Assembly: GCA_036526035.1 (NCBI GenBank)
Contig: DATCZG010000017.1
Coordinates: forward strand, 42,773 to 66,772
From: Ilumatobacter sp.
GTDB taxonomy: Bacteria; Actinomycetota; Acidimicrobiia; Acidimicrobiales; Ilumatobacteraceae
Length of the DNA: 24,000 nucleotides
Direction of reading: 5' to 3'
Shown: one piece after another, positions 2,648 through 18,233 of the stretch
How the letters are laid out: each line of letters starts with the position of its first letter
Numbering within the stretch: position 1 is the first letter of the stretch
The notes under the pieces: model-generated
Seen by the model: the letters and a program-made list of their open reading frames with translations, nothing else
What the model was told of the DNA's origin: nothing
The model's database searches: none
Position numbers and translations under genes: made by a program

Positions 2648-3859
2648 GTGAACGCTCCTCGCATCACGGCCGCGCGCGAGCGTGCCTGGCTCGTGATCGG
2701 GTTGGTGATGGCGTCGGCGTGCGTCGCCCAGGCCTTCGGCCGGTTCACCTGGGGGGTGGTGCTGCCGGGCGCCCGCGACGACCTGCTCGGCGGGTCGAAC
2801 ACGATCGCCGGCCTGTTCGGCACGCTCAACGTCACGGCCTACCTGGTGGGCACGCTGGCGGTGTCGTGGGCGGCGTCGAAGGTCACGCTGGTCGGGCTCG
2901 TGCGGCTCGGTCTCGTCGTCTCGACCAGTTCGCTCGGCCTGGCGTCGATCGCCCCGAACGGGCCGGTGCTCGGCGTCGCGCTGTTCATGATGGGCCTCGG
3001 CGGGGCGGTGATCTGGATCCCGGCGCCGGCGATCGCGGCGCGGGTGCTGCCGCCCCGGCGGGCCGGCATGGCGGTCGGGATGGTGGGGTCGGGGATCGGG
3101 ATCGGGATCGTGTTCGCCGGCCAGATGGCCGCGTTCCTCGACCGGCGCAGCGACGCCGACGATCTCTGGCAGACCCTGTACCGGATCGAGTTCTCGATCG
3201 CGGTCGTCGTGTCCGCCGGGGCGTTCGTGCTGCTCAGGTCGCGTGGTGACCGGCCGTCGCTGCGTGGCGGCTTCGGGGGGTTCACGGCGTTGCGCACGGT
3301 GCGGGGATGGATCCCGGCGACCGCCGCGTACGCGTCGTTCGGGTTCGCCTACATCTTGGTGCTGGGGTTCCTGGTCGCCCGCCTCGAGGACGACTCGGGG
3401 TTCTCGTCGGCGCAGGCGACCGCGATGTTCTCGGTGCTCGGCGCCTCGACCGCGGTGGGCGGGCTGCTGCTCGGGCCGTTGTCGGATCGGATCGGCCGCC
3501 GCGTCACGCTCACGTCGGCCTTCACGATCTTCGCCCTCGCGTCGCTGCTCGTGTTGACCGGCCGCCAACCCTGGGTGACGGTGGCCGCGGTCGGGATCGG
3601 GGTGATGTTCTCCGGCATGCCGGCACTGATCATCGCCCACGTCGTCGACAACACCGACACCGACACCTACGGCCCGGCGTTCAGCGCGGCCACGCTGGCG
3701 TTCGGGGTGACCCAGATGGTGTCACCCCAGATCGGCGGGGCGCTCGCCGACGCGCTCGGCTCGTTCACCTGGGTGTTCGTGTTGTCGGCGTCGGTGTCGA
3801 TGCTCGGAGCGTTGTGCTCGAGCCGGCTCCCGCACCCCCCGTCTGACACCGCCGCCTGA
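2648..3859 (+). CDS. MFS-type transporter (YbfB/YjiJ-like), 403 aa
   Basis: GTG start. About 12 hydrophobic helices, rich in Gly/Ala/Leu/Val, with short charged loops (e.g. GPLSDRIGRR between helices, typical of MFS loop 8-9). Codon third positions are strongly G/C, as in neighbouring genes. Confidence 0.75.
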   Translation: MNAPRITAARERAWLVIGLVMASACVAQAFGRFTWGVVLPGARDDLLGGSNTIAGLFGTLNVTAYLVGTLAVSWAASKVTLVGLVRLGLVVSTSSLGLASIAPNGPVLGVALFMMGLGGAVIWIPAPAIAARVLPPRRAGMAVGMVGSGIGIGIVFAGQMAAFLDRRSDADDLWQTLYRIEFSIAVVVSAGAFVLLRSRGDRPSLRGGFGGFTALRTVRGWIPATAAYASFGFAYILVLGFLVARLEDDSGFSSAQATAMFSVLGASTAVGGLLLGPLSDRIGRRVTLTSAFTIFALASLLVLTGRQPWVTVAAVGIGVMFSGMPALIIAHVVDNTDTDTYGPAFSAATLAFGVTQMVSPQIGGALADALGSFTWVFVLSASVSMLGALCSSRLPHPPSDTAA

Positions 3860-5225: not shown

Positions 5226-7502
5226 ATGACGCGAGCCAGTCGATTCCACGGCACGATCGGCCGCACGCTCGCCGATTCGCAGGCCTGGTTCGACGAGCCA
5301 CCGCACCCCGGGCCCGACGCACCCAACGTGGTGATCGTGCTGCTCGACGACACCGGGTTCGCCCAGTTCGGCTGCTACGGCTCCGACATCGACACCCCCC
5401 ACGTCGATGCGCTCGCGGCGGGCGGCGTGCAGTTCACCAACTTCCACGTCACGCCGCTGTGCTCGCCCACCCGCGCCTCGCTGCTGACCGGCCGCAGCCA
5501 GCACGCGGTGGGGATGCGCGCCGTGTCGAACTTCCGCACCGGGTTCCCCAACCAACTCGGCCACATCAGCAACCATGCGGCCACCGTCGCCGAGGTGCTA
5601 CGCGACGCCGGCTACGCCACGTTCTGCACCGGCAAGTGGCACCTCGCCCCGATGGAGCAGTGTTCGGCGGCCGGTCCGTTCGACCAGTGGCCGCTGGCGC
5701 GCGGGTTCGACCGCTTCTACGGGTTCCTCGAGGGCGAGACCGATCAGTTCCACCCCGAGCTCACCTGCGACAACCACCCGATCGACCCGCCCGCCAAGCC
5801 GGAGGACGGCTACCACCTGTCGGAGGACCTCGTCGACCAGCTGCTCAAGATGGTCTCGGACTCCAAGGGCGTGCGGCCCGACCGTCCGTTCTTCGCCTAC
5901 CTGCCCTTCGGCGCCACCCACGCCCCGCACCAGGCGCCCCAGCGCTACCTCGACAAGTACCGCGGCCGCTACGACGAGGGGTGGGACGTCGTGCGTGAGC
6001 GCTGGTACCGGCGGCAGCTCGAGCTGGGCGTGATCCCCGAGGGCACCCGGCTCGCCCCCCGCAACCCCGGTGTCGACGCCTGGGACACCCTGCCCGAGAA
6101 CCAGCGGCGGCTGGCGTGCCGCCTGCAGGAGGCGTTCGCCGCGTTCCTCGACCACACCGACGACCAGATCGGCCGGTTGGTCGCCGGCCTGCGCGAGATG
6201 GGCGAGTTCGACAACACGGTGTTCGTCGTGCTCGCCGACAACGGCGCCTCGCAGGAGGGCGGCCCGTTCGGTGTGATGCACGAGATGAAGTTCTTCAACG
6301 GCATCTTCGAGACCCCCGACGAGGCGATCGGCAAGATCGACCACATCGGCGGGCCGCACAGCCACACCAACTACCCGTGGGGCTGGGCGCAGTGCGGCAA
6401 CTCGCCGTTCAAGTGGTACAAGCAGAACACCCACGAGGGCGGGGTGCACGTCCCCCTCATCGTGCACGCCCCCGGCCTCGTCGCCGCCGACCAGGCCGGC
6501 ACCACGCGCCGCCAGTTCGTCAACGTGTCCGACATCGTGCCGACGATCTACGAACTCGTCGGCATCACGCCACCCGAGACCCACCGCGGCATCCCCCAGC
6601 TGCCGGTCACCGGCCACTCGTTCGCCGCGATCCTCGCCGACCCGGCGGCGCCGGCCGCCAACACGCTGCAGTACTTCGAGATGAGCGGCAGCCGGGCGCT
6701 CGTCGCCGGCGACCGGCAGTCGCTGTGGAAGGCGGTCTGCAAGCACACCCAGGGCGCCGACTACGACACCGAGCAGTGGGAGCTGTACCACCTCACCGAG
6801 GACTGGTCGGAGTGCAACGACCTCGCCGCGGCCGAGCCCGAACGGCTCGCCGAGCTGATCGCCCGGTGGTGGAGCGAGGCCGAGCGCCACGGCGTGCTGC
6901 CCCTCGACGACCGGATGGCCGAACTGTTCGCCAGCCGGTTCCGGCCCAATTCGCCGCACCCTGCCGACCGGCGCTACGTGTACCGGCCGCCGATGTCGCC
7001 GATGCCGGGCCAGGCCGCCGCCGCGATCGGTGGGCGCAGCTTCGACCTCACCGCCACCGTCACCCGCGCCGCCGGCGAAGAGGGCGTGCTGTACGCCACC
7101 GGTACCCAGAACGCCGGATTGTCGGTGTTCGTGCAGCACGACCGGCTGGTCGTCGACTACAACGCGTTCGACGACCACACCGTCGTCGAATCGACGCTCG
7201 AGGTGCCGACCGGGCGATCGACGCTGGTCGTCAAGGTCCGGCGCGGCGACGGCCGGTCGGGCGCGATCGAGCTCGAGGTCGACGGGCGGCCCGCCGGCGG
7301 CGCCGGGTTGCCGCTGTTCATGCGGATGATGTCGTCGGTCGGCCCGAGCGTCGGGTACGACCACGGTTCGCCGGTGTCGAACCGGTACGCGGCGCCGTTC
7401 CCGTTCGCCGGCAAGCTCCACGAGGTCGTGATCCAGCTGATCTCCAAGCAGGAACTCGACGCGCTCGCCGCCGTCGCGGCGTCCGAGATGAGCCGGCAAT
7501 GA
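5226..7502 (+). CDS. Arylsulfatase, type I (formylglycine-dependent, Cys-type), 758 aa
   Basis: N-terminal metal site [11 protein letters not shown]. Formylglycine motif [13 protein letters not shown] (Cys79 codon at 5460-5462). GKWHL motif (CTGKWHLAP). LADNGAS and a later sulfatase core. The SD AAGGGGG sits 4 nt upstream of the ATG. Confidence 0.92.
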
Positions 7503-8374
7503 GCCTGACGATCACCCTCCTCGGAACCGGCAGCCCGATGCCGAGCCCCGACCGGGCCGGCCCGGCCACGCTGATCTCGGCCGGCTCGGGCTTCGACGCC
7601 GAGCACTACCTCGTCGACGCCGGCCGCGGGGTGCTGATGCGCCTGGCGGCGGTGGGCGTCGGGGCGCCCGGCCTGGCGGCGGTGTTGATCACCCACCTCC
7701 ACAGCGACCACATCACCGATCTCAACGACGTCATCACCACCCGCTGGGTGATGACCCTGCCACCGGCGCCGATCAAGCCGCTGCGGATCATCGGCCCGGT
7801 CGGCACGCGCGCCGTGGTCGAGCACATCCTGGCATCGCTCGGCCCCGACATCGCCTACCGCATCGCCCACCACGACGACCTCGAACAGCCCCCGCTGGTC
7901 GAGGTGACCGAGGTCGCCGAGGGCGCCGTCGATCTGCCGGGCTCGGTGGCGGTCCGTTGCGCCCCGACCGACCACAAGCCGGTCGAGCCGAGCGTGGGCT
8001 ACCGCTTCGACGTCGCCGGCGCCGCCGTGGTCGTCGCCGGCGACACCGTGCCCTGCGACGGCCTCGACGGCCTGTGTGCCGGCGCCGACGCCCTCGTGCA
8101 CACCGTCATCCGCAAGGACATCATCGCCAACGTGCCGGTCCAGCGGATGCTCGACACGCTCGACTACCACTCGTCGCCCGAGGAGGCGGCGCGCACCGCG
8201 GCCCGCGCCGGCGTGGGCACCTTGGTGCTGACCCACTACGTGCCGCCGATCCCCACCGGTACCCCCGGCGACGACTGGCGTGCACTGGCCGCCGCCCACT
8301 TCGACGGCGCGATCGAGATCGGCGACGACCTGCATCGGGTCGAGATCGCCACCAACCCGGCCCAGGAGGCCTGA
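7499..8374 (+). CDS. MBL-fold metallo-hydrolase, RNase Z/ElaC-like, 291 aa
   Basis: ATG at 7499 is in an ATGA overlap with the sulfatase stop. N-terminus [21 protein letters not shown]. HxHxDH metal motif ([11 protein letters not shown]). C-terminal LVLTHY. Confidence 0.85.
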
Positions 8375-8377
8375 ACC

Positions 8378-9289
8378 ATGCACGTCCTACGCACCCCCGA
8401 CGACCGCTTCGCCGATCTGCCCGGCTACCCGTTCGAGCCGCACTACGGCGAGGTCCCCGACGGCGAGGGCGGCACCCTGCGGATGCACTACCTCGACGAG
8501 GGGCCGCGCACCGGGCCGGCCGTGCTGTTGCTGCACGGCGAGCCGTCGTGGAGCTACCTCTACCGCCACATGATCGCGCCGCTGGTCGAGTCGGGCTGTC
8601 GCGTCGTCGCCCCCGACCTGATCGGGTTCGGGCGCAGCGACAAGCCGACCCTCACGAGCGACTACAGCTACGCCCGCCACATCGCCTGGGTCGAGGCGCT
8701 GGTGTTCGGGCATCTCGACCTGAACGACATCACCTACTTCGGTCAGGACTGGGGCGGCCTGATCGGGCTGCGGCTGGTGGCGGCGCACGGCGGCCGTTTC
8801 GCCCGCGTCGCGATCGGCAACACCGGCCTGCCGACGGGGGAGGGACGGCCCAGCGATGCCTTCCTCGCCTGGCAGAGGTTCTCGCAGGAGTCGCCGACGT
8901 TCCCGATCGGTTCGATCGTCAACGGCGGCTGCGCGACCGACCTGCCGCCCGAGGTGATCGCCGCCTACGACGCCCCGTTCCCCGACGACACCTACACCGC
9001 CGGAGCGCGGATCTTCCCGTCGTTCGTGCCCACCTCGACCGCCGACCCGGAGTCGGCGAACAACGCCGCCGCCTGGCAGCAGCTGGCGCAGTTCGACCGG
9101 CCGTTCCTGCTGTGCTTCAGCGATCGCGACCCGATCACCGCCGGCGGCGACGCGCCGTTCCTGGCCAAGGTGCCGGGTACCCGCGGCCAGCCCCACGTCA
9201 CGATCGAGGGCGCCCGCCACTTCCTCCAGGAGGACAAGGGTGCCGAGCTGGCGGCGGTGCTGCTCGGCTTCATCGGGGCCGACCGGTGA
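8378..9289 (+). CDS. dhmA: Haloalkane dehalogenase (alpha/beta hydrolase, HLD-I type), 303 aa
   Basis: RTPDDRFADLPGYPFEPHY…LRMHYLDEGP…LLLHGEPSWSYLYRHMI…PDLIGFGRSDKP. Nucleophile elbow GQDWGG (Asp-Trp). C-terminal catalytic His in GARHFLQEDKG. Starts 3 nt after the MBL stop. Confidence 0.88.
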   Translation: MHVLRTPDDRFADLPGYPFEPHYGEVPDGEGGTLRMHYLDEGPRTGPAVLLLHGEPSWSYLYRHMIAPLVESGCRVVAPDLIGFGRSDKPTLTSDYSYARHIAWVEALVFGHLDLNDITYFGQDWGGLIGLRLVAAHGGRFARVAIGNTGLPTGEGRPSDAFLAWQRFSQESPTFPIGSIVNGGCATDLPPEVIAAYDAPFPDDTYTAGARIFPSFVPTSTADPESANNAAAWQQLAQFDRPFLLCFSDRDPITAGGDAPFLAKVPGTRGQPHVTIEGARHFLQEDKGAELAAVLLGFIGADR

Positions 9290-9355: not shown

Positions 9356-9374
9356 GTGCGGCGAGGCGAAGCGC

Positions 9375-9824
9375 GTGACCGCCGTCGTCAAGACCCGGGT
9401 GGTCGCGTCCCCGAGCGAGCGGGTGTGGGACGTCCTCGCGGCGTTCGAACGCATCGCCGAATGGGCGCCGGAGGTCGATCACTCGAGCCTGCTCACCGAA
9501 CACGGGTCAGGCGTCGGAGCCGTCCGTCGGGTGCAGCTCGGGCGGATGGTGCTGACCGAGACGGTGCGTACCTGGCAGGCCGGCTCGGGCTTGTCGTACA
9601 CGATCGCAGGCCTGCCGCCGGTGGTGCGTTCGGTCGTCAACACCTGGCAGCTCGAGCCGGCGAGCGACGGCACGCTCGTCGTGTTGACCACCGAGATCGA
9701 CGCCGGCCCCCGGCCACCGCAGCTGTTGATCGCCCGGGCCGTCGGCCGCCGTCTCGGCGCCGCCGGCGACAGCATGCTCGCCGGACTCGCCGCACACCTC
9801 GAACGACAGGAGCGCCCGACATGA
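9375..9824 (+). CDS. SRPBCC (polyketide cyclase/dehydrase, lipid-binding START-like) family protein, 149 aa
   Basis: GTG at 9375 with GAGG about 8 nt upstream. Typical SRPBCC N-terminus (VVKTRVVASPSERVWDVLAAFERIAEWAP). The stop overlaps the next gene's ATG (ATGA at 9821-9824). The track ORF's N-terminal extension from 9240 is Pro/Arg-rich and lies over the stem-loop region. Confidence 0.75.
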   Translation: MTAVVKTRVVASPSERVWDVLAAFERIAEWAPEVDHSSLLTEHGSGVGAVRRVQLGRMVLTETVRTWQAGSGLSYTIAGLPPVVRSVVNTWQLEPASDGTLVVLTTEIDAGPRPPQLLIARAVGRRLGAAGDSMLAGLAAHLERQERPT

Positions 9825-12415
9825 GCACCACCCGCCCCGACGTGATCATCCTGATGACCGACGAGGAGCGCGCCGCGCCCCCGTACGAGTCCGACGACGT
9901 GGCGCGATGGCGACGCGAGACGCTCACCGGCGCCGCCTGGTTCGACGACCACGCCGTCAACTTCCGGCGCCACTACACCGGCTCGTTGGCATGCGTCCCC
10001 AGCCGGCCGACGATGTTCACCGGCCAGTACCCCGACCTGCACGGGGTCACCCAGACCGACGGGCTCGGCAAGATGCACGACGACACCCGGATGCGCTGGC
10101 TGCCCGCCGGTGAGGTGCCCACGCTCGGCAACTGGTTCCGGGCCGGCGGGTACGACACCCACTACGACGGCAAGTGGCACCTCTCCCACGCCGATCTGCA
10201 CGACGCCGACGGCCGCCGGTTGGACACCAACGACAGCGCCGGTGTCGTCGACGCCGCGGCGGTGCAGCGCTACCTCGACGCCGACCCGCTCGACCCCTAC
10301 GGGTTCTCGGGATGGGTCGGCCCGGAACCGCACGGCGGTTCGCTCGCCGACGCCGGCGTGCGCCGCGACCCCTTGATCGCGGCCCGGGTCGTCGCCTGGC
10401 TCCACGATCGCTACCAGCGGCGCCGCGCCGGCGACCCCGACGCCCAGCGGCCGTTCCTGCTCGTCGCCAGCTTCGTCAACCCACACGACATCGTGCTGTT
10501 CCCGCTGTGGTCGCGCCGCGGCGTTCCGCTCGAGTCGCCGTCGCCGCTCGACCCGCCGCCGGTCGCCGCCGCCCCGACCGCCGGCGAGGACCTCGCCGCC
10601 AAGCCGGCCGCCCAGATCGCCTACCGGGCGTCGTATCCCAGCGGGTACGGCCCGGCGGCCACGGTCGCCCGGCTCTACGACCAGCGTGCCCAGCAGTACC
10701 GCGACCTGTACCACCGGTTGCACGCCGAGGTCGACGGCCCGCTCGACCAGGTCCGCCGGGCGGTCACCGACGGCGGGTCCGAGCACGCCGTCATCGTGCG
10801 CACCAGCGACCACGGCGACCTGCTCGGCGCGCACGGTGGCCTGCACCAGAAGTGGTTCACGCTCTACGACGAGGCCACCCGGGTGCCGTTCTCGATCGCC
10901 CGGGTCGGCGCGGGTGCCACCACGGGCTCGGTGATCGCCGACGCCCCGACGTCGCACGTCGACCTCGTGCCGACCCTGCTCGCGGCGGCGGGCATCGACA
11001 CCGAGATGGCGGCCGAGGTGCTGCGCGAGTCGTTCAGCGAGGTGCACCCGCTGCCGGGCCGCAACCTGATGCCGGTCGTCGACGCCGTCGAGCCGGCCGA
11101 CCGCGACCGCCCGGTGTACCTGATGACCCGCGACAACATGCTCGAGGGCGACACGCTGGCGTCGGGCGTGGCACGCCGTCTGGGCCGCACCGCCAAGCCG
11201 CCCGCACCACTGCGGATCCGGGTGCCCGCCCACGTCGGCGCCAACTTCGAAGGGTTGGTGGCGCGGGTCGCCGACGCCGACGCCCCCGGCGCCGCCGGCC
11301 ACCTGTGGAAGCTGGTGCGCACGTTCGACGACCCGGCGACGTGGACCGAGCCGGGCGTCCGCCATCTCGCCGCCAGCGGCCCCGGCGGCGACGAGTACCG
11401 CACCCGCCCGGTGCCCGACCAGTGGGAGCTCTACGACCTCGACGCCGACCCGGCCGAGGCCGTCAACCGCTGGCGCGACCCGGCCGCCTCGGCGGTGTTC
11501 GACCACCTGCGCGGCGAGTTGAAGGCCGAGCGGGCACGCGCCGTGCCCGAACGCAACGCGCCGTGGCCGTACGCGGCACGGCGGTCGCCCGCCGGCCCGC
11601 CGCGCAAGCAGCCGCCACCCCCGGCGCGCGCCGCCCGGAAGCTGCTGCAGCGCCTCGGCATGCACCCCGACGACACCGAACCCTTCGAGGTCGACGTCGA
11701 CCTCAGCGGGCGGCGGGCGCTCGTCGTCGCCACCAACCACGGCACGCTCGACATCGGCAAGCCGACCGGCGTGTTCGCCAGCGAGATGACCGTGCCGTAC
11801 TACGCGTTCCACGACGCCGGCATGAGCGTCGACGTCGCCAGCCCCAACGGCGGCGTGATCCCGGTCGACCCGATGTCGCTCAAGCCGGTGATCCGCACCG
11901 CCGAGGACGACCGCTTCCTCGCCGACGACGACTTCCGGGCGAAGGTGACCGGTTCGTTCGCGATCGGCGACCTCGACATGACGGCCTACGACATCGTGTT
12001 CCTGGCCGGCGGCTGGGGGGCGGCGTTCGACTTCGGTTTCAGCGAGGCCCTGGCCACCAAGATCACCGAGGCGAACGCCGCCGGCAAGGTGATCGGCGGC
12101 GTCTGCCACGGCCCGCTCGGCCTGCGCAACGCACTCGGCACCGACGGCCGCCCGCTCGTCGAGGGCCGCCGCGTCACCGGGGTGTCCGACAAGCAGGTGC
12201 GCGAGCTGGGCATCGCGTCGACACCTCACCACCCCGAGGCCGAGCTGCGCCGGATGGGGGCGGCGTACGAATCGGTCAGCCGGTTCCGAGACCCGTTCGC
12301 CAACCACTGGGTCGTCGACGGCAACCTGGTGACCGGACAGAACCAGAACGCCGGGCCGATGGTGGCCCGCGAGATGCTCAAGCTGGTCGTCGACCGGCTC
12401 ACGGCGCAGGCCTGA
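9821..12415 (+). CDS. Fusion protein: N-terminal Cys-type sulfatase domain plus C-terminal DJ-1/PfpI/Hsp31-like (class I glutamine amidotransferase-like) domain, 864 aa
   Basis: Sulfatase part: DVIILMTDEER, formylglycine motif ACVPSRPTMFTGQYP (Cys58 codon 9992-9994), YDGKWHLS, RTSDHGDLLGAHGGLHQKWFTLYDEATRVPFSI. A Pro/Arg-rich linker follows (…SPAGPPRKQPPPPARAARK…). DJ-1/Hsp31 part from about 11711: ALVVATNHG…YDIVFLAGGWGAAFDF…GKVIGGVCHGPLGL (nucleophile Cys codon 12104-12106, followed by His)…VVDGNLVTGQNQNAG. Confidence 0.9.
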   Translation: MSTTRPDVIILMTDEERAAPPYESDDVARWRRETLTGAAWFDDHAVNFRRHYTGSLACVPSRPTMFTGQYPDLHGVTQTDGLGKMHDDTRMRWLPAGEVPTLGNWFRAGGYDTHYDGKWHLSHADLHDADGRRLDTNDSAGVVDAAAVQRYLDADPLDPYGFSGWVGPEPHGGSLADAGVRRDPLIAARVVAWLHDRYQRRRAGDPDAQRPFLLVASFVNPHDIVLFPLWSRRGVPLESPSPLDPPPVAAAPTAGEDLAAKPAAQIAYRASYPSGYGPAATVARLYDQRAQQYRDLYHRLHAEVDGPLDQVRRAVTDGGSEHAVIVRTSDHGDLLGAHGGLHQKWFTLYDEATRVPFSIARVGAGATTGSVIADAPTSHVDLVPTLLAAAGIDTEMAAEVLRESFSEVHPLPGRNLMPVVDAVEPADRDRPVYLMTRDNMLEGDTLASGVARRLGRTAKPPAPLRIRVPAHVGANFEGLVARVADADAPGAAGHLWKLVRTFDDPATWTEPGVRHLAASGPGGDEYRTRPVPDQWELYDLDADPAEAVNRWRDPAASAVFDHLRGELKAERARAVPERNAPWPYAARRSPAGPPRKQPPPPARAARKLLQRLGMHPDDTEPFEVDVDLSGRRALVVATNHGTLDIGKPTGVFASEMTVPYYAFHDAGMSVDVASPNGGVIPVDPMSLKPVIRTAEDDRFLADDDFRAKVTGSFAIGDLDMTAYDIVFLAGGWGAAFDFGFSEALATKITEANAAGKVIGGVCHGPLGLRNALGTDGRPLVEGRRVTGVSDKQVRELGIASTPHHPEAELRRMGAAYESVSRFRDPFANHWVVDGNLVTGQNQNAGPMVAREMLKLVVDRLTAQA

Positions 12416-12425
12416 CAGGAGCGAG

Positions 12426-13238
12426 ATGGCCGACACCCCCCGCTACGGACAGGTCGACCGGGACTACGGCATCCGGCTGGCCACGACACCGCCCGACGAG
12501 GACGGTCCGATCTGGATGGTCAACTTGATGAAGTACCGCGAGCACGCCGACTACGGCGACGGCGGCGGGCCGGCGATCAGCGGCCGTGAGGCCGACGACC
12601 TCTACACCCCGTTCGACGTGCTCGCCGCGATCGGCGCCGAGGTCGTGTTCGCCGCCGACGTCGACCAGCAGTTGCTCGGCGCCGCGCCGCAGTGGGACCG
12701 GGTGGCGATCGTGAAGTACCCGACGCGTCGCTCGTTCATCGAGATGCAGAGCCGGCCCGACTTCCAGCGCCGCCACGTGCACAAGGACGCCGGGATGGAG
12801 ACGACGATCGTCAGCGGCTGCCTGCCGATCGCGCTGCCCGCCGGCGATCCGGTCGACTGGGCCGACGTGCCCCACCCGCCGACCGCCGATGACGGTCCGG
12901 TGGTGGTGATCCACGTGCTGAAGTTCCAGGCGTCGACGGCGGTGACACCCGACGAGATGGTCGCCTACCAGCAGGCCGCGGCCCGGGTGGCGGTGCCCCA
13001 CGGGGTGCGGCTGAACGGGTGGTTCGCGGTCGAGGGCACGATCCTGGGCGACGGCCGCTCGTGGGACCAGATCCGGTTCAACGAGTTCCCCAGCAAGGCG
13101 GCGTTCATGGCCGTGGCGCTCGACCCGGCCCGGCTCGATGCCCAGCACGGCCACCGCGAGGTGGCGATCGCCGACACCTACACGATGATCCTGCGGGCCC
13201 ACGTCAACCGGCTGGCCGAGTCGATCGCCGCCGGCTGA
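12426..13238 (+). CDS. Protein with two tandem DUF1330-like (dimeric alpha/beta-barrel) domains, 270 aa
   Basis: AGGAG 5 nt upstream of the ATG. Two internal repeats end in the DUF1330-like block: WDRVAIVKYPTRRSFIEMQSRPDFQ and WDQIRFNEFPSKAAFMAVALDPARL. Confidence 0.8.
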   Translation: MADTPRYGQVDRDYGIRLATTPPDEDGPIWMVNLMKYREHADYGDGGGPAISGREADDLYTPFDVLAAIGAEVVFAADVDQQLLGAAPQWDRVAIVKYPTRRSFIEMQSRPDFQRRHVHKDAGMETTIVSGCLPIALPAGDPVDWADVPHPPTADDGPVVVIHVLKFQASTAVTPDEMVAYQQAAARVAVPHGVRLNGWFAVEGTILGDGRSWDQIRFNEFPSKAAFMAVALDPARLDAQHGHREVAIADTYTMILRAHVNRLAESIAAG

Positions 13239-13265: not shown

Positions 13266-14069
13266 TCAGTCGGCGAGCGTGCCGGCGAACACCTGCCAGG
13301 CGAGGGCGCTCTTGGCGGCCAGGCTGAGCACGAGGTACACCTGCTCGCCGTAGAGGTAGTCGGCGAACCTGCCGCGGCCGCGGTACTGCAGCCACTGGTT
13401 GAGGGCGAAGCAGTTGAACAGCACGAACAGCGACACGAAGATGCCGTACACGAAGCCGGGCACGCCGTCGCCTTCGCGTTGTGAGGTGATCAGCGCGATC
13501 GCGATCACGATCCAGGGCACGATGCCGGCGAGGCCGCCCAGCGTGAACGGCCACCAGTCGACCGGGTCGCCGGGCCGGTTGGTGCGTTCCATCAGCCAGC
13601 CGAAGGCGATCATCGCGGCGTTGACGGCGAACAGCCCGATCAGGGCGTAGAGGTTGGTGATCCCGGGCAGCATCGCGATCAGCACGACCATCAGCGAGGC
13701 GCTCACCGAGTACTCGATCCACCGGGCGACGTTGATGCCGCGTCGCAGGTTCGCCTCGTACCAGCCGACGACGCCCGGGGCGGCCATCAGCAGGTGATCG
13801 GCGGCGGCGAGGAACAGGAACACCGCGATCGCGACCGAGAACCGGAGATCGAAGAACACGTGCTCGATCGTGAGCGGGGTGCCGGGAGGCCCGTCCTGCA
13901 CCGGCGCCCCCACCGCGATCGCGAAGCCGTTGCCGAGCAGCAGGATCAGCACGCCCTGTGCGAGGTGGGCGACGCCGACGCCGACGTTCCAGCGCCGCAG
14001 GCGTGCCAGGCGGTCGACCACCGGGGCGCTGGTCGGATCGACGCTGGTCGGATCGGCGCTGGTGCTCAC
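13266..14069 (-). CDS. Heliorhodopsin (retinal-binding 7-TM photoreceptor, inverted topology), about 267 aa
   Basis: Block-by-block resemblance to heliorhodopsin 48C12 as I remember it: GVAHLAQ (TM1 His), ADHLLM (TM2 His), RWIEYSVSASLMVVLIA (counterion Glu), VNAAMIAFGWL, PGFVYGIFVSLFVLFNCFALNQWLQYRGRG, YLVLSLAAKSALAWQVFAGTL (Schiff-base Lys codon 13311-13313). The start is uncertain. GTG 14069 is chosen because it is the first start codon after ATG 14204. The 14070-14204 stretch has lower GC3 and overlaps the upstream gene's end. Confidence 0.9.
   Translation of the reverse strand: MSTSADPTSVDPTSAPVVDRLARLRRWNVGVGVAHLAQGVLILLLGNGFAIAVGAPVQDGPPGTPLTIEHVFFDLRFSVAIAVFLFLAAADHLLMAAPGVVGWYEANLRRGINVARWIEYSVSASLMVVLIAMLPGITNLYALIGLFAVNAAMIAFGWLMERTNRPGDPVDWWPFTLGGLAGIVPWIVIAIALITSQREGDGVPGFVYGIFVSLFVLFNCFALNQWLQYRGRGRFADYLYGEQVYLVLSLAAKSALAWQVFAGTLAD
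14028..14063. repeat. 15-nt in-frame tandem repeat in the heliorhodopsin N-terminal tail
   Basis: GCTGGTCGGATCGAC (14028-14042), GCTGGTCGGATCGGC (14043-14057) and partial GCTGGT (14058-14063). On the minus strand this encodes S-ADPTS-VDPTS-A. Confidence 0.75.
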
Positions 14070-14181
14070 GGGGGTGCTCGCTTTCGGTCGGGTGGGTGCC
14101 GGCGAAGCTCGCGCGTCGCACCCGGTCGTGCCAGATGGAACAGCGGTCGATGGTGGATATTCCCGTCGTCGTTCGCCGGGA

Positions 14182-15012
14182 TCACTCCCCGTGGGCCGGC
14201 ACACCGGCGGTGAACACCGGCCGGTCCGCGGCCCGGCGCACGGTGGTGCGAGCCCGGGCGACCAGGTCGGCGAGCGGCTGTCCGGCGCCGCCGACGAGGG
14301 TGGCGACCCCCGCGGCCGCGAGGTCGCCGGCGGCAGCCGCGGCGGTCGCCGCCACGTCCGGCTGGGTGACGGTGATCACGGCGACGTCGACGCCGTTCCC
14401 GGTGCAGAACCGGATGAACTCGGCCGCCGGGAGGTCGGCCCCGAGGTGGTGCACGTGCCAGTGGTCGGCCCGCAGGGCGACCGCCGCCATGGTGGTCGGC
14501 AACGAATGCCGGTCGCCCGACAGCGCGGCCACCGCAGCGGTGCCGCGGCGGCGGCCGCGCGGGTTCGGGGCGAGCTCGCCGAGCAACCGTTCGACGATCG
14601 CCGACGCCCGGTGTTCGGCCCAGATCGTGAGGTCGCCCGTCGACCAGGCGCTGCCGATCGCCCGCAACGACGGGGCGAGCACCTGCTCGACGAGATCGAG
14701 GATCGGTGTGCCCTCGGCGACCAGGCGGGTGGCGATCCGGACGGCGGCGGCCTCGTCGCCGGCGACCAGCGCGGCGTGCATCCGCTCGGCGGCGTGGTGC
14801 ATCCGGGCCGGTCGCGGCGGTGGCGGCGCCTGCGGCGCCCGCCGCGACCGCTCGAGTTCGGCGGCCGCCGAACGCGACACCAGGTAACGACCGGCGACCA
14901 TCTCGGCCGGCAGGGTCCCGTTGCGCACCCATCGGTAGGCGGTCTGGTAGTGCACGCCGAGCAGTTCGGCGGCCGCCGCCAACTCGACTCGTTCCTCGGC
15001 CGCTGCATCCAC
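14182..15012 (-). CDS. HTH (excisionase/MerR-superfamily) plus cobalamin(B12)-binding domain transcriptional regulator, CarH/LitR-like candidate photoreceptor, 276 aa
   Basis: N-terminal HTH AAAELLGVHYQTAYRWVRNGTLPAEMVAGRYLVS. Helical-bundle motif W-x9-EH = W123 STGDLTIWA E133 H134 (codons 14646-14611). B12-binding Rossmann part with SGDRHSLP (D-x-H-x-x-P; His169 codon 14508-14506), …DVAVITVT…, …LVGGAG. GTG start at 15012. Confidence 0.85.
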   Translation of the reverse strand: MDAAAEERVELAAAAELLGVHYQTAYRWVRNGTLPAEMVAGRYLVSRSAAAELERSRRAPQAPPPPRPARMHHAAERMHAALVAGDEAAAVRIATRLVAEGTPILDLVEQVLAPSLRAIGSAWSTGDLTIWAEHRASAIVERLLGELAPNPRGRRRGTAAVAALSGDRHSLPTTMAAVALRADHWHVHHLGADLPAAEFIRFCTGNGVDVAVITVTQPDVAATAAAAAGDLAAAGVATLVGGAGQPLADLVARARTTVRRAADRPVFTAGVPAHGE

Positions 15013-15122
15013 GGCCGTACCGTAGGCCTGCGGTCACCTTTGTGCACTAACCAGCGCTGAATCGGTGCCGTGCTCGTCGCCCGGCCGCGGCGGCTGATGG
15101 TCCGCCCGCCGGACGCGACGCC

Positions 15123-15152: not shown

Positions 15153-15187
15153 CTTCGGCCCCTGCCGCCAGCGTGAACGGAGACGAC

Positions 15188-16453
15188 GTGACCACCACCC
15201 CACGAGCCGCCGAGCCGGCCTTGCCGGCGACCACCGACGTCGTGATCGTCGGTGCCGGCCTGGCCGGTCTCGCCGCGGCGCGGGTGCTGTGCGATGCCGG
15301 CCGCGACGTGGTGCTGCTCGAGGCGTCCGACGGGGTCGGCGGCCGGGTCCGCACCGACGTCGTCGACGGGTTCCGGCTCGACCGCGGCTTCCAGGTGCTG
15401 CTCACCGCCTACCCCGAGCTGCACACCCAGTTCGACCTCGACGCGCTCGACCTGCGGCGCTTCGAGCCGGGGGCGATGGTGTGGAACGGCTCGTCGCTGC
15501 ACCTGGTGGGCGACCCGTTCCGGCGCCCCCGCACGCTCCTCGCAACTGCCACGGCACCGGTCGGGTCGATCGCCGACAAGCTGCGCATCCTGCGCCAGCG
15601 GGTTCGTCTCGCCCGTTCCGGCGCCCCCGATCTGCTGCGGGGCGACGACGTCTCGACGATCGCCGCGCTGCGCGCCCAGGGGTTCAGCGACCGGATCGTC
15701 GAACGTTTCTTCCGGCCGCTGGTGGGCGGCATCCAACTCGACCCGGCGCTCGCCACCAGCCGGCGGATGTTCGACGTCATCCTGCGCAGCCTGATCGAGG
15801 GTGACGTGGCCGTGCCGGCGGCGGGCATGGGGGCGATCCCCGCCCAGCTGGCCGGTCACCTGCCCCCCGGGGTGGTCCGGCTCGGCACCGAGGTCGCCGC
15901 CGTCGCCCCGGGCGGGGTCACCGTCGCCGACGGCCGCCACATCGGCGCGCCGCGGGTGATCGTGGCCACCGAGGGGCCCCGGGCGGCGGCGCTGCTGGGC
16001 CTGCCGGAGGTCGGCTCCAAGCCGGCGTCGTGCGTGTGGTACGCGGCCGACGCCGCCCCGATCGACGGCCGCTACATCGTGCTCGACGGCACCGGCCGCG
16101 GGCCGGCGCTCAACACGTCGGTGATGAGCAACGTCGCCCCCGAGTACGCCCCGGGCGGTCAGGCCTTGATCGCCGCCGCCTGCCCGGGGGTCCACGACCC
16201 GGCGATCGAGCCGGCGGTGCGGGCCCAACTGCGGGCGATGTGGGGCCCGGCGGTCGACGCGTGGCGCCACCTGCGCACCGATGCGATCCTCCACGGCCAG
16301 CCCCGCCAGGAACCACCGTTCGATCCGCGTCGGCGGGTGGCCCTCGGCGACGGCCTGTTCGTCTGCGGCGACCACCGCGACACGGCCTCGATCCAGGGCG
16401 CTTTGTTCTCGGGTCGGCGCTGCGGCGAGGCGGTCGCCGCATCGTTCACCTGA
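15188..16453 (+). CDS. NAD(P)/FAD-dependent oxidoreductase, amine-oxidase/phytoene-desaturase-like fold, about 421 aa
   Basis: Rossmann dinucleotide motif DVVIVGAGLAGLAAARVL…VVLLEASDGVGGRV. C-terminal flavin motif LFVCGDHRDTASIQGALFSGRRCGEAV. GTG 15188 has GGAG 5 nt upstream. The in-frame GTG 15173 (track start) is an alternative. Confidence 0.85.
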   Translation: MTTTPRAAEPALPATTDVVIVGAGLAGLAAARVLCDAGRDVVLLEASDGVGGRVRTDVVDGFRLDRGFQVLLTAYPELHTQFDLDALDLRRFEPGAMVWNGSSLHLVGDPFRRPRTLLATATAPVGSIADKLRILRQRVRLARSGAPDLLRGDDVSTIAALRAQGFSDRIVERFFRPLVGGIQLDPALATSRRMFDVILRSLIEGDVAVPAAGMGAIPAQLAGHLPPGVVRLGTEVAAVAPGGVTVADGRHIGAPRVIVATEGPRAAALLGLPEVGSKPASCVWYAADAAPIDGRYIVLDGTGRGPALNTSVMSNVAPEYAPGGQALIAAACPGVHDPAIEPAVRAQLRAMWGPAVDAWRHLRTDAILHGQPRQEPPFDPRRRVALGDGLFVCGDHRDTASIQGALFSGRRCGEAVAASFT

Positions 16454-16565: not shown

Positions 16566-17024
16566 ATGAGCGCCACCCGGCGGGCGGTCGTGGTGAGCAC
16601 CGTGATCGGGCGTTCGCCCGGCGAGGTGTGGGCCGACGTCCGCGACATCGCCTCCCACGTCACCTGGATGCAGGACGCTGCCGAGATCCGGTTCCTCACC
16701 GACGCCCGCGAGGGCATCGGCACCCGCTTCGAGTGCGACACCAAGGTCGGCCCGTTCTCGCTGACCGACGTGATGGAGATCACCGCGTGGGAGGATGCCC
16801 GGCGCATGGGGGTTCGCCACGTCGGCCTGGTCGAGGGCCGCGGCGAGTTCACCCTCGCCGAGCTGGCGGGCGGGGCGACCGAGTTCCGGTGGGAGGAGGA
16901 TCTGATCTTCCCCTGGTTCCTGGGTGGGCCGGTCGGCGCCTTCTTCGCCCGGCCGGTGCTGCGGCTGATCTGGAAGCGCAACCTGGCGCGGCTCAAGCAG
17001 CGCCTCGAAGCCCCGGCGGGCTGA
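16566..17024 (+). CDS. SRPBCC family protein, 152 aa
   Basis: AGGTGG 5 nt upstream of the ATG. SRPBCC-like N-terminus (VVVSTVIGRSPGEVWADVRDIASHVTWM) and a C-terminal amphipathic helix. Confidence 0.8.
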   Translation: MSATRRAVVVSTVIGRSPGEVWADVRDIASHVTWMQDAAEIRFLTDAREGIGTRFECDTKVGPFSLTDVMEITAWEDARRMGVRHVGLVEGRGEFTLAELAGGATEFRWEEDLIFPWFLGGPVGAFFARPVLRLIWKRNLARLKQRLEAPAG

Positions 17025-17034
17025 GGCCGGCGTG

Positions 17035-17538
17035 ATGAACCGGTGGCGACACCCGGTGCCCGACCCGGTCGGCCCCGGGCAGGAGTCGGTGTGGGACTAT
17101 CCCCGCCCGCCCCGGCTCGAGACGTCGGCCCGGCACGTGCGGGTCGAACTGGGCGGGGTCGTCGTCGCCGACAGCGACCGGGCGCTGCGGGTGCTCGAGA
17201 CGTCGCACCCGCCGACCTACTACGTGCACCCCGACGACGTCGCCTGGCAGTACCTCCGCCCGGCGCCGGGTGGCTCGTTGTGCGAGTGGAAGGGCCAGGC
17301 GTCGTACTGGACGGTGGCGGCGGGCGACCAACTGGTCGAGGCCGGCGCCTGGTCGTACCGCGACCCGACGCCGCACTTCGCGGCGATCGTCGACCACGTC
17401 GCGTTCTACCCGGCACGGTTCCGCTGCCTGCTCGACGACGAACCGGTCACCCCCCAGCCGGGCGGGTTCTACGGCGGGTGGGTCACGGGCGAGCTGGCCG
17501 GCCCGTTCAAAGGCGGCCCCGGCACGTTCGGTTGGTGA
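17035..17538 (+). CDS. DUF427 domain-containing protein, 167 aa
   Basis: Characteristic ESVWDYPRPP…, SHPPTYYVHPDDV, CEWKGQASYW and …HVAFYP blocks. ATG 17035 has GAGG 8 nt upstream (GTG 17032 is an alternative). The stop overlaps the next gene's GTG. Confidence 0.8.
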   Translation: MNRWRHPVPDPVGPGQESVWDYPRPPRLETSARHVRVELGGVVVADSDRALRVLETSHPPTYYVHPDDVAWQYLRPAPGGSLCEWKGQASYWTVAAGDQLVEAGAWSYRDPTPHFAAIVDHVAFYPARFRCLLDDEPVTPQPGGFYGGWVTGELAGPFKGGPGTFGW

Positions 17539-18233
17539 CCCGGCGGCCGTCGCCGGCGGGCCAGAATCAGGGCGTGGACGCGACACCCCGAGGCGATCAG
17601 TCGGCGGCGCCCGACGGGGCCGGGCGGCGGCGGGTGGCGGGCTGGACGGCGGCGGCCGCGATCGTGCTGGTGGCGCTGACCGTGATCGTCCTCGCCCATC
17701 CGGCACCCCTGCCCGGCGAGGTGCGCTACGTCGGGTTCCTGCAGCGCCTGGCGGGGCCGGTGCCGTCGGTGGCGCGGTTCGTGCGCCGCACCACGGGCAC
17801 CGAGGCGTCGGTCGCGTTGGCGGTGCCGGCCGGGTTCTGGCTGATCACCCGGTACGGCCGCGCCGGTGGCGGGGCGCTGGCGGTCGCCCTGCTGGCGATG
17901 CTGGTGCTGCAACCGGTGTACAAGGAGCTCGTCGACCGGCCCCGCCCGACCGTCGAGCAGGTCGAGGTGCGCGCCCACCACACCAGCAAGAGCTTCCCGT
18001 CCGGGCACTCGCTCAGCACCACCACCGTGTGGGGCACCGCGGCGGCGCTCGCCTGGCGCCACCGGCGCCGCCCGGTGGCCGGCGTGCTGGCGCTGCCGAT
18101 CGTGCTCACGGGGCTGGCGAGCGCCGTCCAGGGCGTGCACTGGCCGTCGGACGCGCTGGCGGGAACGCTGGCGGGTGCGCTGGCCGCGGTGGTCATCGTG
18201 CGGGTGCTCGGCCCGCCGCCGGCGCCGGCGTGA
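17535..18233 (+). CDS. PAP2-family phosphatase (membrane-associated acid/lipid phosphatase), about 232 aa
   Basis: The three PAP2 motifs are present: KELVDRPRP, PSGHS, SAVQGVHWPSDALAG. There are several TM helices. GTG 17535 is in a GTGA overlap with the DUF427 stop. GTG 17574 is an alternative start. Confidence 0.8.
   Translation: MTRRPSPAGQNQGVDATPRGDQSAAPDGAGRRRVAGWTAAAAIVLVALTVIVLAHPAPLPGEVRYVGFLQRLAGPVPSVARFVRRTTGTEASVALAVPAGFWLITRYGRAGGGALAVALLAMLVLQPVYKELVDRPRPTVEQVEVRAHHTSKSFPSGHSLSTTTVWGTAAALAWRHRRRPVAGVLALPIVLTGLASAVQGVHWPSDALAGTLAGALAAVVIVRVLGPPPAPA

Follow-up and report, generated by a model that had tools for sequence, protein, structure and literature searches.

The founding actinobacterial heliorhodopsin (HeR), 48C12 (PDB 6SU3 and 6UH3), is the closest described relative of the protein considered here, and for certain other members of the family a partner has been shown experimentally, namely glutamine synthetase, photolyase, or the OmrDE ABC exporter (PMC11109279). 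The gene of our interest lies on the minus strand of a 24,000-nt stretch of Ilumatobacter sp. DNA (GenBank assembly GCA_036526035.1, contig DATCZG010000017.1, positions 42,773 to 66,772), hereafter the window, and at window positions 13266-14069 it almost certainly encodes a complete seven-helix HeR. The predicted protein shares with 48C12 its length and seven-helix layout, and with the partnered HeRs the family and the Arg-rich loop YRGRGRFAD. It differs from the former in its setting, a high-GC Acidimicrobiia (Ilumatobacter) genome in which the gene stands behind a gene for a regulator of B12-photoreceptor type, here called litR, and from the latter in that none of those partner genes adjoins it. 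The gene layout suggests that this HeR is probably light-induced, as a member of a photo-oxidative-stress regulon under the control of LitR.

Cho et al. (2024) grouped HeR loci by their neighbours, and under that scheme the window locus falls with those of the 'MerR family regulator' type (PMC11109279). These authors list 'MerR family transcriptional regulator' and 'SDR' (short-chain dehydrogenase/reductase) among ten frequent same-operon neighbours of HeRs and do not discuss B12 or light control; the text supplements to their paper contain no mention of MerR or B12. Glutamine synthetase and photolyase, which a sequence-only reading of the window had named as HeR partners, are indeed both among the published neighbour groups (PMC11109279). 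Chazan et al. described the enrichment of cobalamin-binding proteins, photolyases, and PAS proteins beside HeRs and DTE pumps, and linked HeR neighbourhoods to oxidative stress (10.1101/2021.02.16.431466), and Bulzu et al. (2021) argued for a sensory, oxidative-stress role of HeR, with cobalamin unmentioned (PMC8612252). In the literature that we searched, only the statistical enrichment of cobalamin-binding proteins near rhodopsins is already published, and no description was found of the LitR clade presented below, its operator, its operon series, or the pairing of this regulator with rhodopsins.

The second relevant system is that of the CarH/LitR regulators, such as Thermus thermophilus CarH (TtCarH, PDB 5C8D) and Streptomyces LitR, whose N-terminal helix-turn-helix, four-helix bundle, and Rossmann B12 domain are shared by the window regulator. 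A further likeness to CarH may lie in the candidate operator of tandem direct repeats at the window litR. In the work of Jost et al. from 2015, TtCarH is said to bind three 11-bp direct repeats. Unlike CarH, the window LitR has a rhodopsin and oxidative-stress genes as neighbours, not carotenoid genes, and its transcript is predicted to be leaderless. Photo-oxidative-stress regulons of the sigma-E/ChrR type, the third system, contain genes of SDR, amine oxidase, DUF1365, cyclopropane-fatty-acid synthase, and photolyase. The genes around HeRs of the clade studied here overlap with this set (amine oxidase, SRPBCC, SDR/NmrA-DUF2867, and Dps), and the match is exact in the operon of one relative (L171, see below), whereas the presumed controller in the window is a B12 repressor and not a pair of extracytoplasmic function (ECF) sigma factor and anti-sigma factor. 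The elements of the window unit are as follows (TM, transmembrane helix).

13266-14069, minus strand: HeR coding sequence, 267 aa, GTG start, stop codon counted (PF18761, NF038020, alignment to 48C12)
13311-13313, minus strand: codon of K253, the retinal Schiff-base Lys in TM7 (K241 of 48C12), in the block SLAAKSALAWQ (alignment to 6su3)
13713-13715, minus strand: codon of E119, the single Schiff-base counterion Glu in TM3 (E107 of 48C12), in RWIEYS (alignment to 6su3)
13794-13796, minus strand: codon of H92 in TM2 (H80 of 48C12; alignment to 6su3)
13965-13967, minus strand: codon of H35 in TM1 (H23 of 48C12; alignment to 6su3)
14070-14181, minus strand: litR-HeR spacer of 112 nt, presumably read through (terminator, promoter, and repeat scans)
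14182-15012, minus strand: litR/carH-like gene, 276 aa, with HTH_17, a B12-binding_2 helix bundle, and a B12-binding Rossmann domain (Pfam)
15013-15060, minus strand: candidate litR promoter and operator (repeats, -10 box, leaderless start)

The assignment of the HeR gene is based on its match to the whole Pfam profile PF18761 (Heliorhodopsin; positions 1-242 of 242, E 1.7e-93, 312.9 bits vs. a cutoff of 26.7) and to the NCBIfam equivalog NF038020 'heliorhodopsin HeR' (298.1 bits, cutoff 100). Our search of PDB indicated the structures of 48C12 (6su3, 6uh3, and 9ljj; E about 4e-67) as the closest ones, and the similarity to TaHeR (6is6) had an E value of 4e-57. The window protein and 48C12 are 46.8% identical over 250 aligned residues with two one-residue gaps. 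In this alignment H35, H92, E119, and K253 correspond to H23, H80, E107, and K241 of 48C12, and Q38, N113, W117, Y120, Q225, S249, and W258 are conserved as well (Q26, N101, W105, Y108, Q213, S237, and W246 in 48C12). The differences from 48C12 include an N-terminus longer by 14 residues and the replacement of S112 by A124. Both His residues are invariant across 16 members of the HeR clade, as is the Arg cluster YRGRGRFAD of the last cytoplasmic loop. The sequence-only reading had recognized a heliorhodopsin with complete signature blocks, and all of them (GVAHLAQ, ADHLLM, RWIEYSVSASLM, and SLAAKSALAWQ) occur in the translation; its position of the Schiff-base Lys codon is the same as ours, and the comparison to 48C12, TaHeR, and the family profile that it proposed as a check places the Lys, the Glu, and both His residues in conserved columns. 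Since solved structures exist at 47% identity, structure prediction was judged unneeded.

With the helices placed by means of the alignment to the 48C12 structure, and by neither a topology predictor nor experiment, the N-terminal tail together with the TM2-3, TM4-5, and TM6-7 loops holds 12 of the 14 Arg residues of the window HeR, and the remaining loops hold two. By the positive-inside rule this skew fits the inverted topology of the HeR family, with the N-terminus in the cytoplasm, and thus agrees, as an indirect test, with the cytoplasmic N-terminus that had been expected from the sequence. The HeR reading frame on the minus strand is open back to position 14204, where another GTG codon could serve as a start and would make the gene overlap litR. 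We rejected this alternative, as the G+C content at third codon positions (GC3) is 0.95 over 14069-13266 vs. 0.60 over the in-frame extension 14204-14070, in a genome of about 72% G+C in which genuine genes have GC3 of 0.89-0.96, and as both the homologues and the public annotations place the start at 14069, which makes this GTG the best-supported start of HeR. The low GC3 upstream of it indicates that the litR-HeR spacer is non-coding.

The gene itself is not new. A public protein designated 'MAG TPA: heliorhodopsin HeR [Ilumatobacter sp.]' (P0001) is 100% identical to it over all 267 residues, and the identical 267-aa protein is called from GTG 14069 in public assemblies. The same locus is also present in an ENA metagenome contig (L081; loci other than the window are designated here by L numbers), with nucleotide identity of at least 99.9% across the aligned stretches. 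Among 8,000 candidates scored, 7,693 were significant HeR homologues, the majority of them from Acidimicrobiia and other Actinomycetota. The window gene is thus correctly annotated and ordinary: its family is already known from thousands of sequences and several crystal structures, and is commonest in this very phylum. What is of interest is its regulatory context and the rhodopsin-linked clade of CarH-like regulators.

As the sequence-only reading had stated, a B12 regulator flanks HeR: a gene for a B12-binding regulator is located immediately upstream, on the same strand. The domains of its product follow each other in the order PF12728 (E 8.6e-09), PF02607 (E 4e-12), and PF02310 (E 1e-06). 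The best NCBIfam match is the CarH repressor NF052513 with 51.2 bits, at which the equivalog cutoff of 400 is not reached, and by its sequence the protein should be filed as a member of a CarH-like subfamily and not as CarH itself. Among solved structures it is closest to the cobalamin-binding proteins 8j2w and 8jbs, with Thermus CarH coming next. When it is aligned to TtCarH (chains 8c35 and 5c8d), the W-x9-EH element and the axial His that ligates cobalt correspond to W131, E141/H142, and H177. According to a 2024 study, the motifs GxxW, EH, GxxH, and GxxxP separate light-responsive from other cobalamin-binding domains (PMC11796333). All four are present in the window LitR, as IGSAW, AEH, and SGDRH, placed by the alignment to TtCarH, and GADLP, matched to GxxxP by eye, and they are invariant in four orthologues. 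Because of this full four-motif signature of adenosylcobalamin (AdoCbl) photoreceptors, the gene was called litR-like, and we regard its product as a candidate photoreceptor-repressor of the CarH/LitR type.

Our survey of related loci covered 80 species-representative HeR loci and 80 metagenome loci seeded with LitR (L087-L166). In the window, the putative operator consists of the repeats TCAG (15057-15060) and TTAG (15047-15050), which are 10 nt apart, and a -10 box TACGGT (15019-15024) lies 6 nt before the GTG start codon at 15012. The pattern TYAG-N6-TTAG occurs once in the 24 kb, before litR, vs. 0.03 occurrences expected, and the distance of the proximal GTTAGTGCA to the start codon is exactly the same as in a LitR-seeded locus, L101. 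A TAnnnT box 5-8 nt ahead of the start codon, found in 67 of the 70 non-redundant litR genes of the clade, points to a leaderless litR transcript. Just upstream of 43 of these 70 genes there are three or four T[TC]A[GC] cores at a spacing of 10-11 nt, and the mean length of the repeat chain before clade litR genes is 2.67 vs. 0.82 in shuffled sequence. Within 967 kb of HeR-containing loci, T[TC]AG cores form chains of three or more on five occasions, each of them immediately upstream of litR. The repeat scan detected no second LitR operator ahead of HeR or elsewhere in the window, and scans of the litR-HeR spacer revealed no terminator-like, sigma-70-like, or TYAG repeat sites.

In seven related loci (L001, L002, L086, L167, L168, L169, and L170), litR leads a string of same-strand genes that ends in HeR, with 4-nt overlaps frequent between neighbouring genes. 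The HeRs of these loci are 74-81% identical to that of the window where listed (74% in the best segment of L002). The genes between litR and HeR vary: a Dps-like ferritin in L168 and in L170, where HeR is followed by a DUF2071 gene; NmrA/DUF2867 in L169 and L002; and a longer series in L086, and similarly in L001, which comprises genes of two small membrane proteins (sm80 and sm60), ferritin, SRPBCC, and NmrA/DUF2867. The string of L167 resembles that of L086 except that the SRPBCC gene is lacking and the DUF2867 gene is fragmented. No remnants of ferritin, NmrA-DUF2867, small membrane protein, or type-1 rhodopsin genes were found in the window. Since L168 shares with the window both flanking gene clusters, namely the divergent operon with amine-oxidase, SRPBCC, and DUF427 genes and the convergent sulfatase cluster, the window looks like the L168 layout minus the ferritin gene.

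Of the 80 species-representative loci, nine have a LitR-like gene within 6 kb of HeR, including the four most similar ones. In L003 and L004, litR is divergent from two small membrane ORFs and HeR, and the control region shared by them contains TTTAGTG/CACTAAA. LitR is also divergent in L017 and L076, upstream in L022 and L036, and downstream in L053, which is a Chloroflexia metagenome-assembled genome. In the LitR-seeded search, a type-1 rhodopsin gene divergent from litR and less than 400 nt away was found in 37 of the 52 metagenome loci in which litR is preceded by 900 nt or more; these rhodopsins match PF01036 and have the helix-C motif RYVDWLLTVPLLLAE, i.e., DTE, of proton-pump type. HeR is present in five of the 25 LitR-seeded loci of at least 8 kb, and three of those five (L155, L160, and L165) carry a type-1 rhodopsin, litR, and HeR together. 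The clade of LitR is thus linked to rhodopsins without being specific to HeR, and the majority of HeR genes have no such link to LitR. The HeR-seeded and LitR-seeded scans independently reproduce the cobalamin pattern of Chazan et al.

Several further features of these loci deserve mention. Between litR and the type-1 rhodopsin there is a candidate T[TC]AG repeat operator, for example in L099, with the rhodopsin gene at 6067-6939 on the minus strand and litR at 7001-7756 on the plus strand. The small membrane proteins of litR/rhodopsin clusters, sm80 (L086:3059-3301) and sm60 (L086:3298-3480), match no Pfam family. The former is about 80 aa long, has the motif FLxSVxLYFVADxxxAGIFVG(L/I)WVPSIHSLG, and is often followed by the second small hydrophobic ORF. 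Their homologues are encoded in L001, L167, L003 (about 3170-3390), L004, and about 20 of the LitR-seeded loci L087-L166, and in L003 and L004 both small ORFs directly precede HeR. In L171 (1-11499), with litR not nearby, a HeR gene whose product is 76% identical to the window HeR closes an operon of SDR, amine oxidase, DUF1365, and cyclopropane-fatty-acid synthase genes; the operon lies downstream of an ECF sigma factor gene and is adjoined by NmrA-DUF2867 and DNA photolyase genes, and its gene content is the classical photo-oxidative-stress set. An RPE65-family carotenoid oxygenase is encoded in L172 (2719-4200, minus strand), three genes from an 81%-identical HeR, together with a photolyase-related DPRP gene. 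HeR genomes usually lack blh, and this oxygenase could provide them with retinal.

The divergent operon of the window begins 160 nt beyond litR, and the convergent cluster on the other side stops 27 nt from the HeR stop codon. The genes of both are as follows.

15173-16453, plus strand: flavin amine-oxidase-family oxidoreductase, first gene of the divergent operon (PF01593, E 6e-43)
16566-17024, plus strand: SRPBCC (Polyketide_cyc2) protein of the divergent operon (Pfam)
17032-17538, plus strand: DUF427 (NTP_transf_9) protein of the divergent operon (Pfam)
17535-18233, plus strand: membrane protein of the PAP2 phosphatase family, whose gene has a 4-nt overlap with the stop of the DUF427 gene (Pfam; coordinates mapped via L081)
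5226-7502, plus strand: sulfatase of the convergent cluster (Pfam)
about 7500-8374, plus strand: metallo-beta-lactamase (MBL)-fold hydrolase of the convergent cluster (Pfam)
8378-9289, plus strand: alpha/beta hydrolase of the convergent cluster (Pfam)
within 9356-12415, plus strand: SRPBCC gene and sulfatase-DJ-1/PfpI fusion (Pfam, public gene calls)
12426-13238, plus strand: final gene of the convergent cluster, for a 270-aa protein weakly similar to DUF1330, not counted in the HeR unit (Pfam; synteny)

Homologues of the amine oxidase are encoded at the matching position in L168, next to HeR in L075, and within the HeR operon of L171. We considered a carotenoid or retinal route for this enzyme and rejected it, as its scores are under every NCBIfam cutoff for carotenoid desaturases (CrtI and CrtD) and for HpnE, and there is no blh or crt gene in the window. 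In L081, about 119 extra nt within the amine-oxidase gene (L081:3473-3575, corresponding to about 15999-16014 of the window) split it into two gene calls, whereas the window copy is intact and encodes 426 aa; the insertion is either strain variation or an assembly artefact. SRPBCC genes are also found within the litR-HeR operon of L086. Genes of DUF427, a family not among the published HeR neighbours that we encountered, occur near HeRs in varied layouts (L075:7052-7537, L087:9155-9634, L168:304-810, and 17032-17538 in the window), being adjacent downstream of HeR, adjacent and divergent, or inside the operon divergent from litR.

The convergent side agrees with the description of HeR as facing the end of a sulfatase operon: two sulfatases, the MBL-fold protein, and the alpha/beta hydrolase are encoded there on the plus strand. 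The claim of an otherwise catabolic neighbourhood holds for this downstream side and fails for the upstream one, which is a probable light-response cluster. The ORF of 1019 aa at 9356-12415 is represented in public gene calls by products of 149 aa and 864 aa, and probably comprises two genes, for SRPBCC and for a sulfatase with a C-terminal DJ-1/PfpI domain. The sulfatase-DJ-1 fusion is kept in L086, L168, and L169, and the gene at 12426-13238 is syntenic in the same three loci. The MBL-fold gene matches both PF23023 (Anti-Pycsar_Apyc1) and Lactamase_B_2, and in its sulfatase context it is more likely to encode a hydrolase of the cluster than an anti-defence protein. The only Rfam hit at gathering score in the scan of the window, that of the Mycobacterium sRNA Ms_AS-5 (9992-10036, minus strand, 67.6 bits), is exactly antisense to the sulfatase active-site motif CVPSRPTMFTG and most likely reflects coding-sequence conservation rather than an sRNA gene. 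A tRNA scan of the window detected none. In the Pfam analysis of all window genes, no glutamine synthetase, photolyase, or heterodimeric multidrug ABC exporter gene adjoins HeR, and the only ABC system of the window is an Opp-type importer 11 kb away.

The arrangement described above suggests a model in which, in the dark, oligomers of AdoCbl-bound LitR would occupy the repeats and block the litR promoter. Light would break the Co-C bond, the repressor would leave, litR would be transcribed, and HeR would be made by read-through over the 112-nt spacer. The same 160 nt would also control the divergent amine-oxidase/SRPBCC/DUF427/PAP2 operon, which would probably be induced alongside. On this model the cell would produce HeR only while illuminated, from the final gene of a photo-oxidative-stress operon. 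Relatives have this operon in a fuller version, with genes of small membrane proteins, Dps-like ferritin, SRPBCC, and NmrA-DUF2867, and the window would represent it in the reduced form litR-HeR. By analogy to other members of the family, HeR itself would be no ion pump, and may be a slow-cycling, light-gated regulator of a partner protein, acting via its Arg-rich cytoplasmic loops. Synthesis of this light sensor would thus probably be confined to cells already exposed to light.

Several observations weigh against the light-induced expression of HeR under LitR. Both the co-transcription and the light induction are deduced from gene layout alone. Approximately 90% of the sampled HeR loci have no LitR inside 6 kb, the close relatives L084/85, L171, and L172 (HeRs 76-82% identical) have no litR, and the litR-HeR link is lineage-specific. 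The window operator candidate has just two recognisable repeats vs. three or four in relatives, LitR is far under the CarH equivalog cutoff (51 vs. 400 bits), and its DNA-binding domain scores as HTH_17 and not as the classical MerR (MerR_1). The putative ribosome-binding site of HeR is weak, the spacer could hide an actinobacterial promoter invisible to a sigma-70 scan, and among the window genes none of the three experimentally shown partner types adjoins HeR. Some of these points would be accommodated by a constitutive expression of HeR from a promoter of its own in the spacer, with the adjacency of litR being an inherited Ilumatobacteraceae gene order devoid of regulatory meaning. The spacer is long enough for a promoter and lacks operator-like repeats, and the majority of HeR genes elsewhere, as well as those of the relatives just named, have no LitR nearby. 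We consider this unlikely, though it is the alternative to be taken most seriously, given that the spacer scan gave neither a promoter-like nor a terminator-like site and that the operons of relatives are tight from litR through HeR, on the same strand and with overlapping stop and start codons. In addition, the litR-HeR association recurs in varied arrangements and phyla (L003/L004, L017, L036, L053, L155, L160, and L165), which is not expected from inherited order alone. The light dependence of the switch could be questioned, too, if the regulator sensed B12 availability or the redox state, so that HeR expression would track the cofactor status; independence from light is documented for certain relatives of CarH/LitR and for other B12-binding regulators (PMC11796333), and the CarH equivalog score is low. 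This seems improbable for a protein in which all four light-response motifs are present and whose clade has neighbours dominated by rhodopsins, fitting a light input.

Two further explanations concern the function of HeR rather than its expression. HeR might be a light-driven or light-gated ion transporter or, as speculated by Chazan et al., a light-dependent membrane-lipid enzyme: a viral HeR is reported to conduct protons (cited in PMC11109279), lipid-related genes are known among HeR neighbours (10.1101/2021.02.16.431466), and such genes are also present in this lineage, namely PAP2 in the divergent operon and cyclopropane-fatty-acid synthase in L171. We find little reason to favour it, as all compared pocket residues are those of the non-pumping 48C12, nothing in the sequence sets the window HeR apart, and the YRGRGRFAD loop, implicated by the literature in partner binding, is invariant in the clade. 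To our knowledge, none of the prokaryotic HeRs tested to date shows transport. A functional tie of HeR to the convergent sulfatase/hydrolase cluster, for instance the light-gating of the catabolism of sulfated substrates, would follow the context stressed by the sequence-only reading but appears highly improbable. The sulfatase-DJ-1 gene and its neighbours do lie immediately downstream in the window, and the cluster is syntenic with HeR in L001, L086, L167, L168, and L169, but the convergent orientation makes a shared transcript or promoter impossible, and sulfatases are not among the published enriched HeR neighbours. A sulfatase is found near HeR in only one of the 80 species-level HeR loci by tblastn, and the genes downstream of HeR are different in L170, L171, and L172. 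The orientation, this low frequency, and the other genes in those three loci indicate that the synteny, limited to one lineage, reflects lineage gene order and not a functional link.

If the light-induced expression of HeR under LitR is set in the wider frame of the clade, a broader proposal can be put forward tentatively, as one that is about as likely as not. The regulators would form a distinct CarH-like clade dedicated to the light-switching of rhodopsin genes, with leaderless transcripts and T[TC]AG repeats at a 10-11 bp spacing. They would act on type-1 DTE proton-pump genes in most lineages and on HeR in Ilumatobacteraceae, and the window would contain a minimal two-tier cascade, in which a cobalamin sensor licenses the production of a retinal sensor, with HeR closing a photo-oxidative-stress operon.

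For the physiological role of heliorhodopsins, this lineage affords a regulatory hypothesis that is uncommonly clean and can be tested, in which HeR closes an operon headed by a B12 light-switch repressor and carrying a variable cargo that is always related to oxidative stress (Dps, SRPBCC, and NmrA-DUF2867). If true, it would place HeR firmly in the light-stress response and provide a short list of candidate partners, and the control region of litR would be a natural green-light-inducible promoter/operator that serves both rhodopsin superfamilies.

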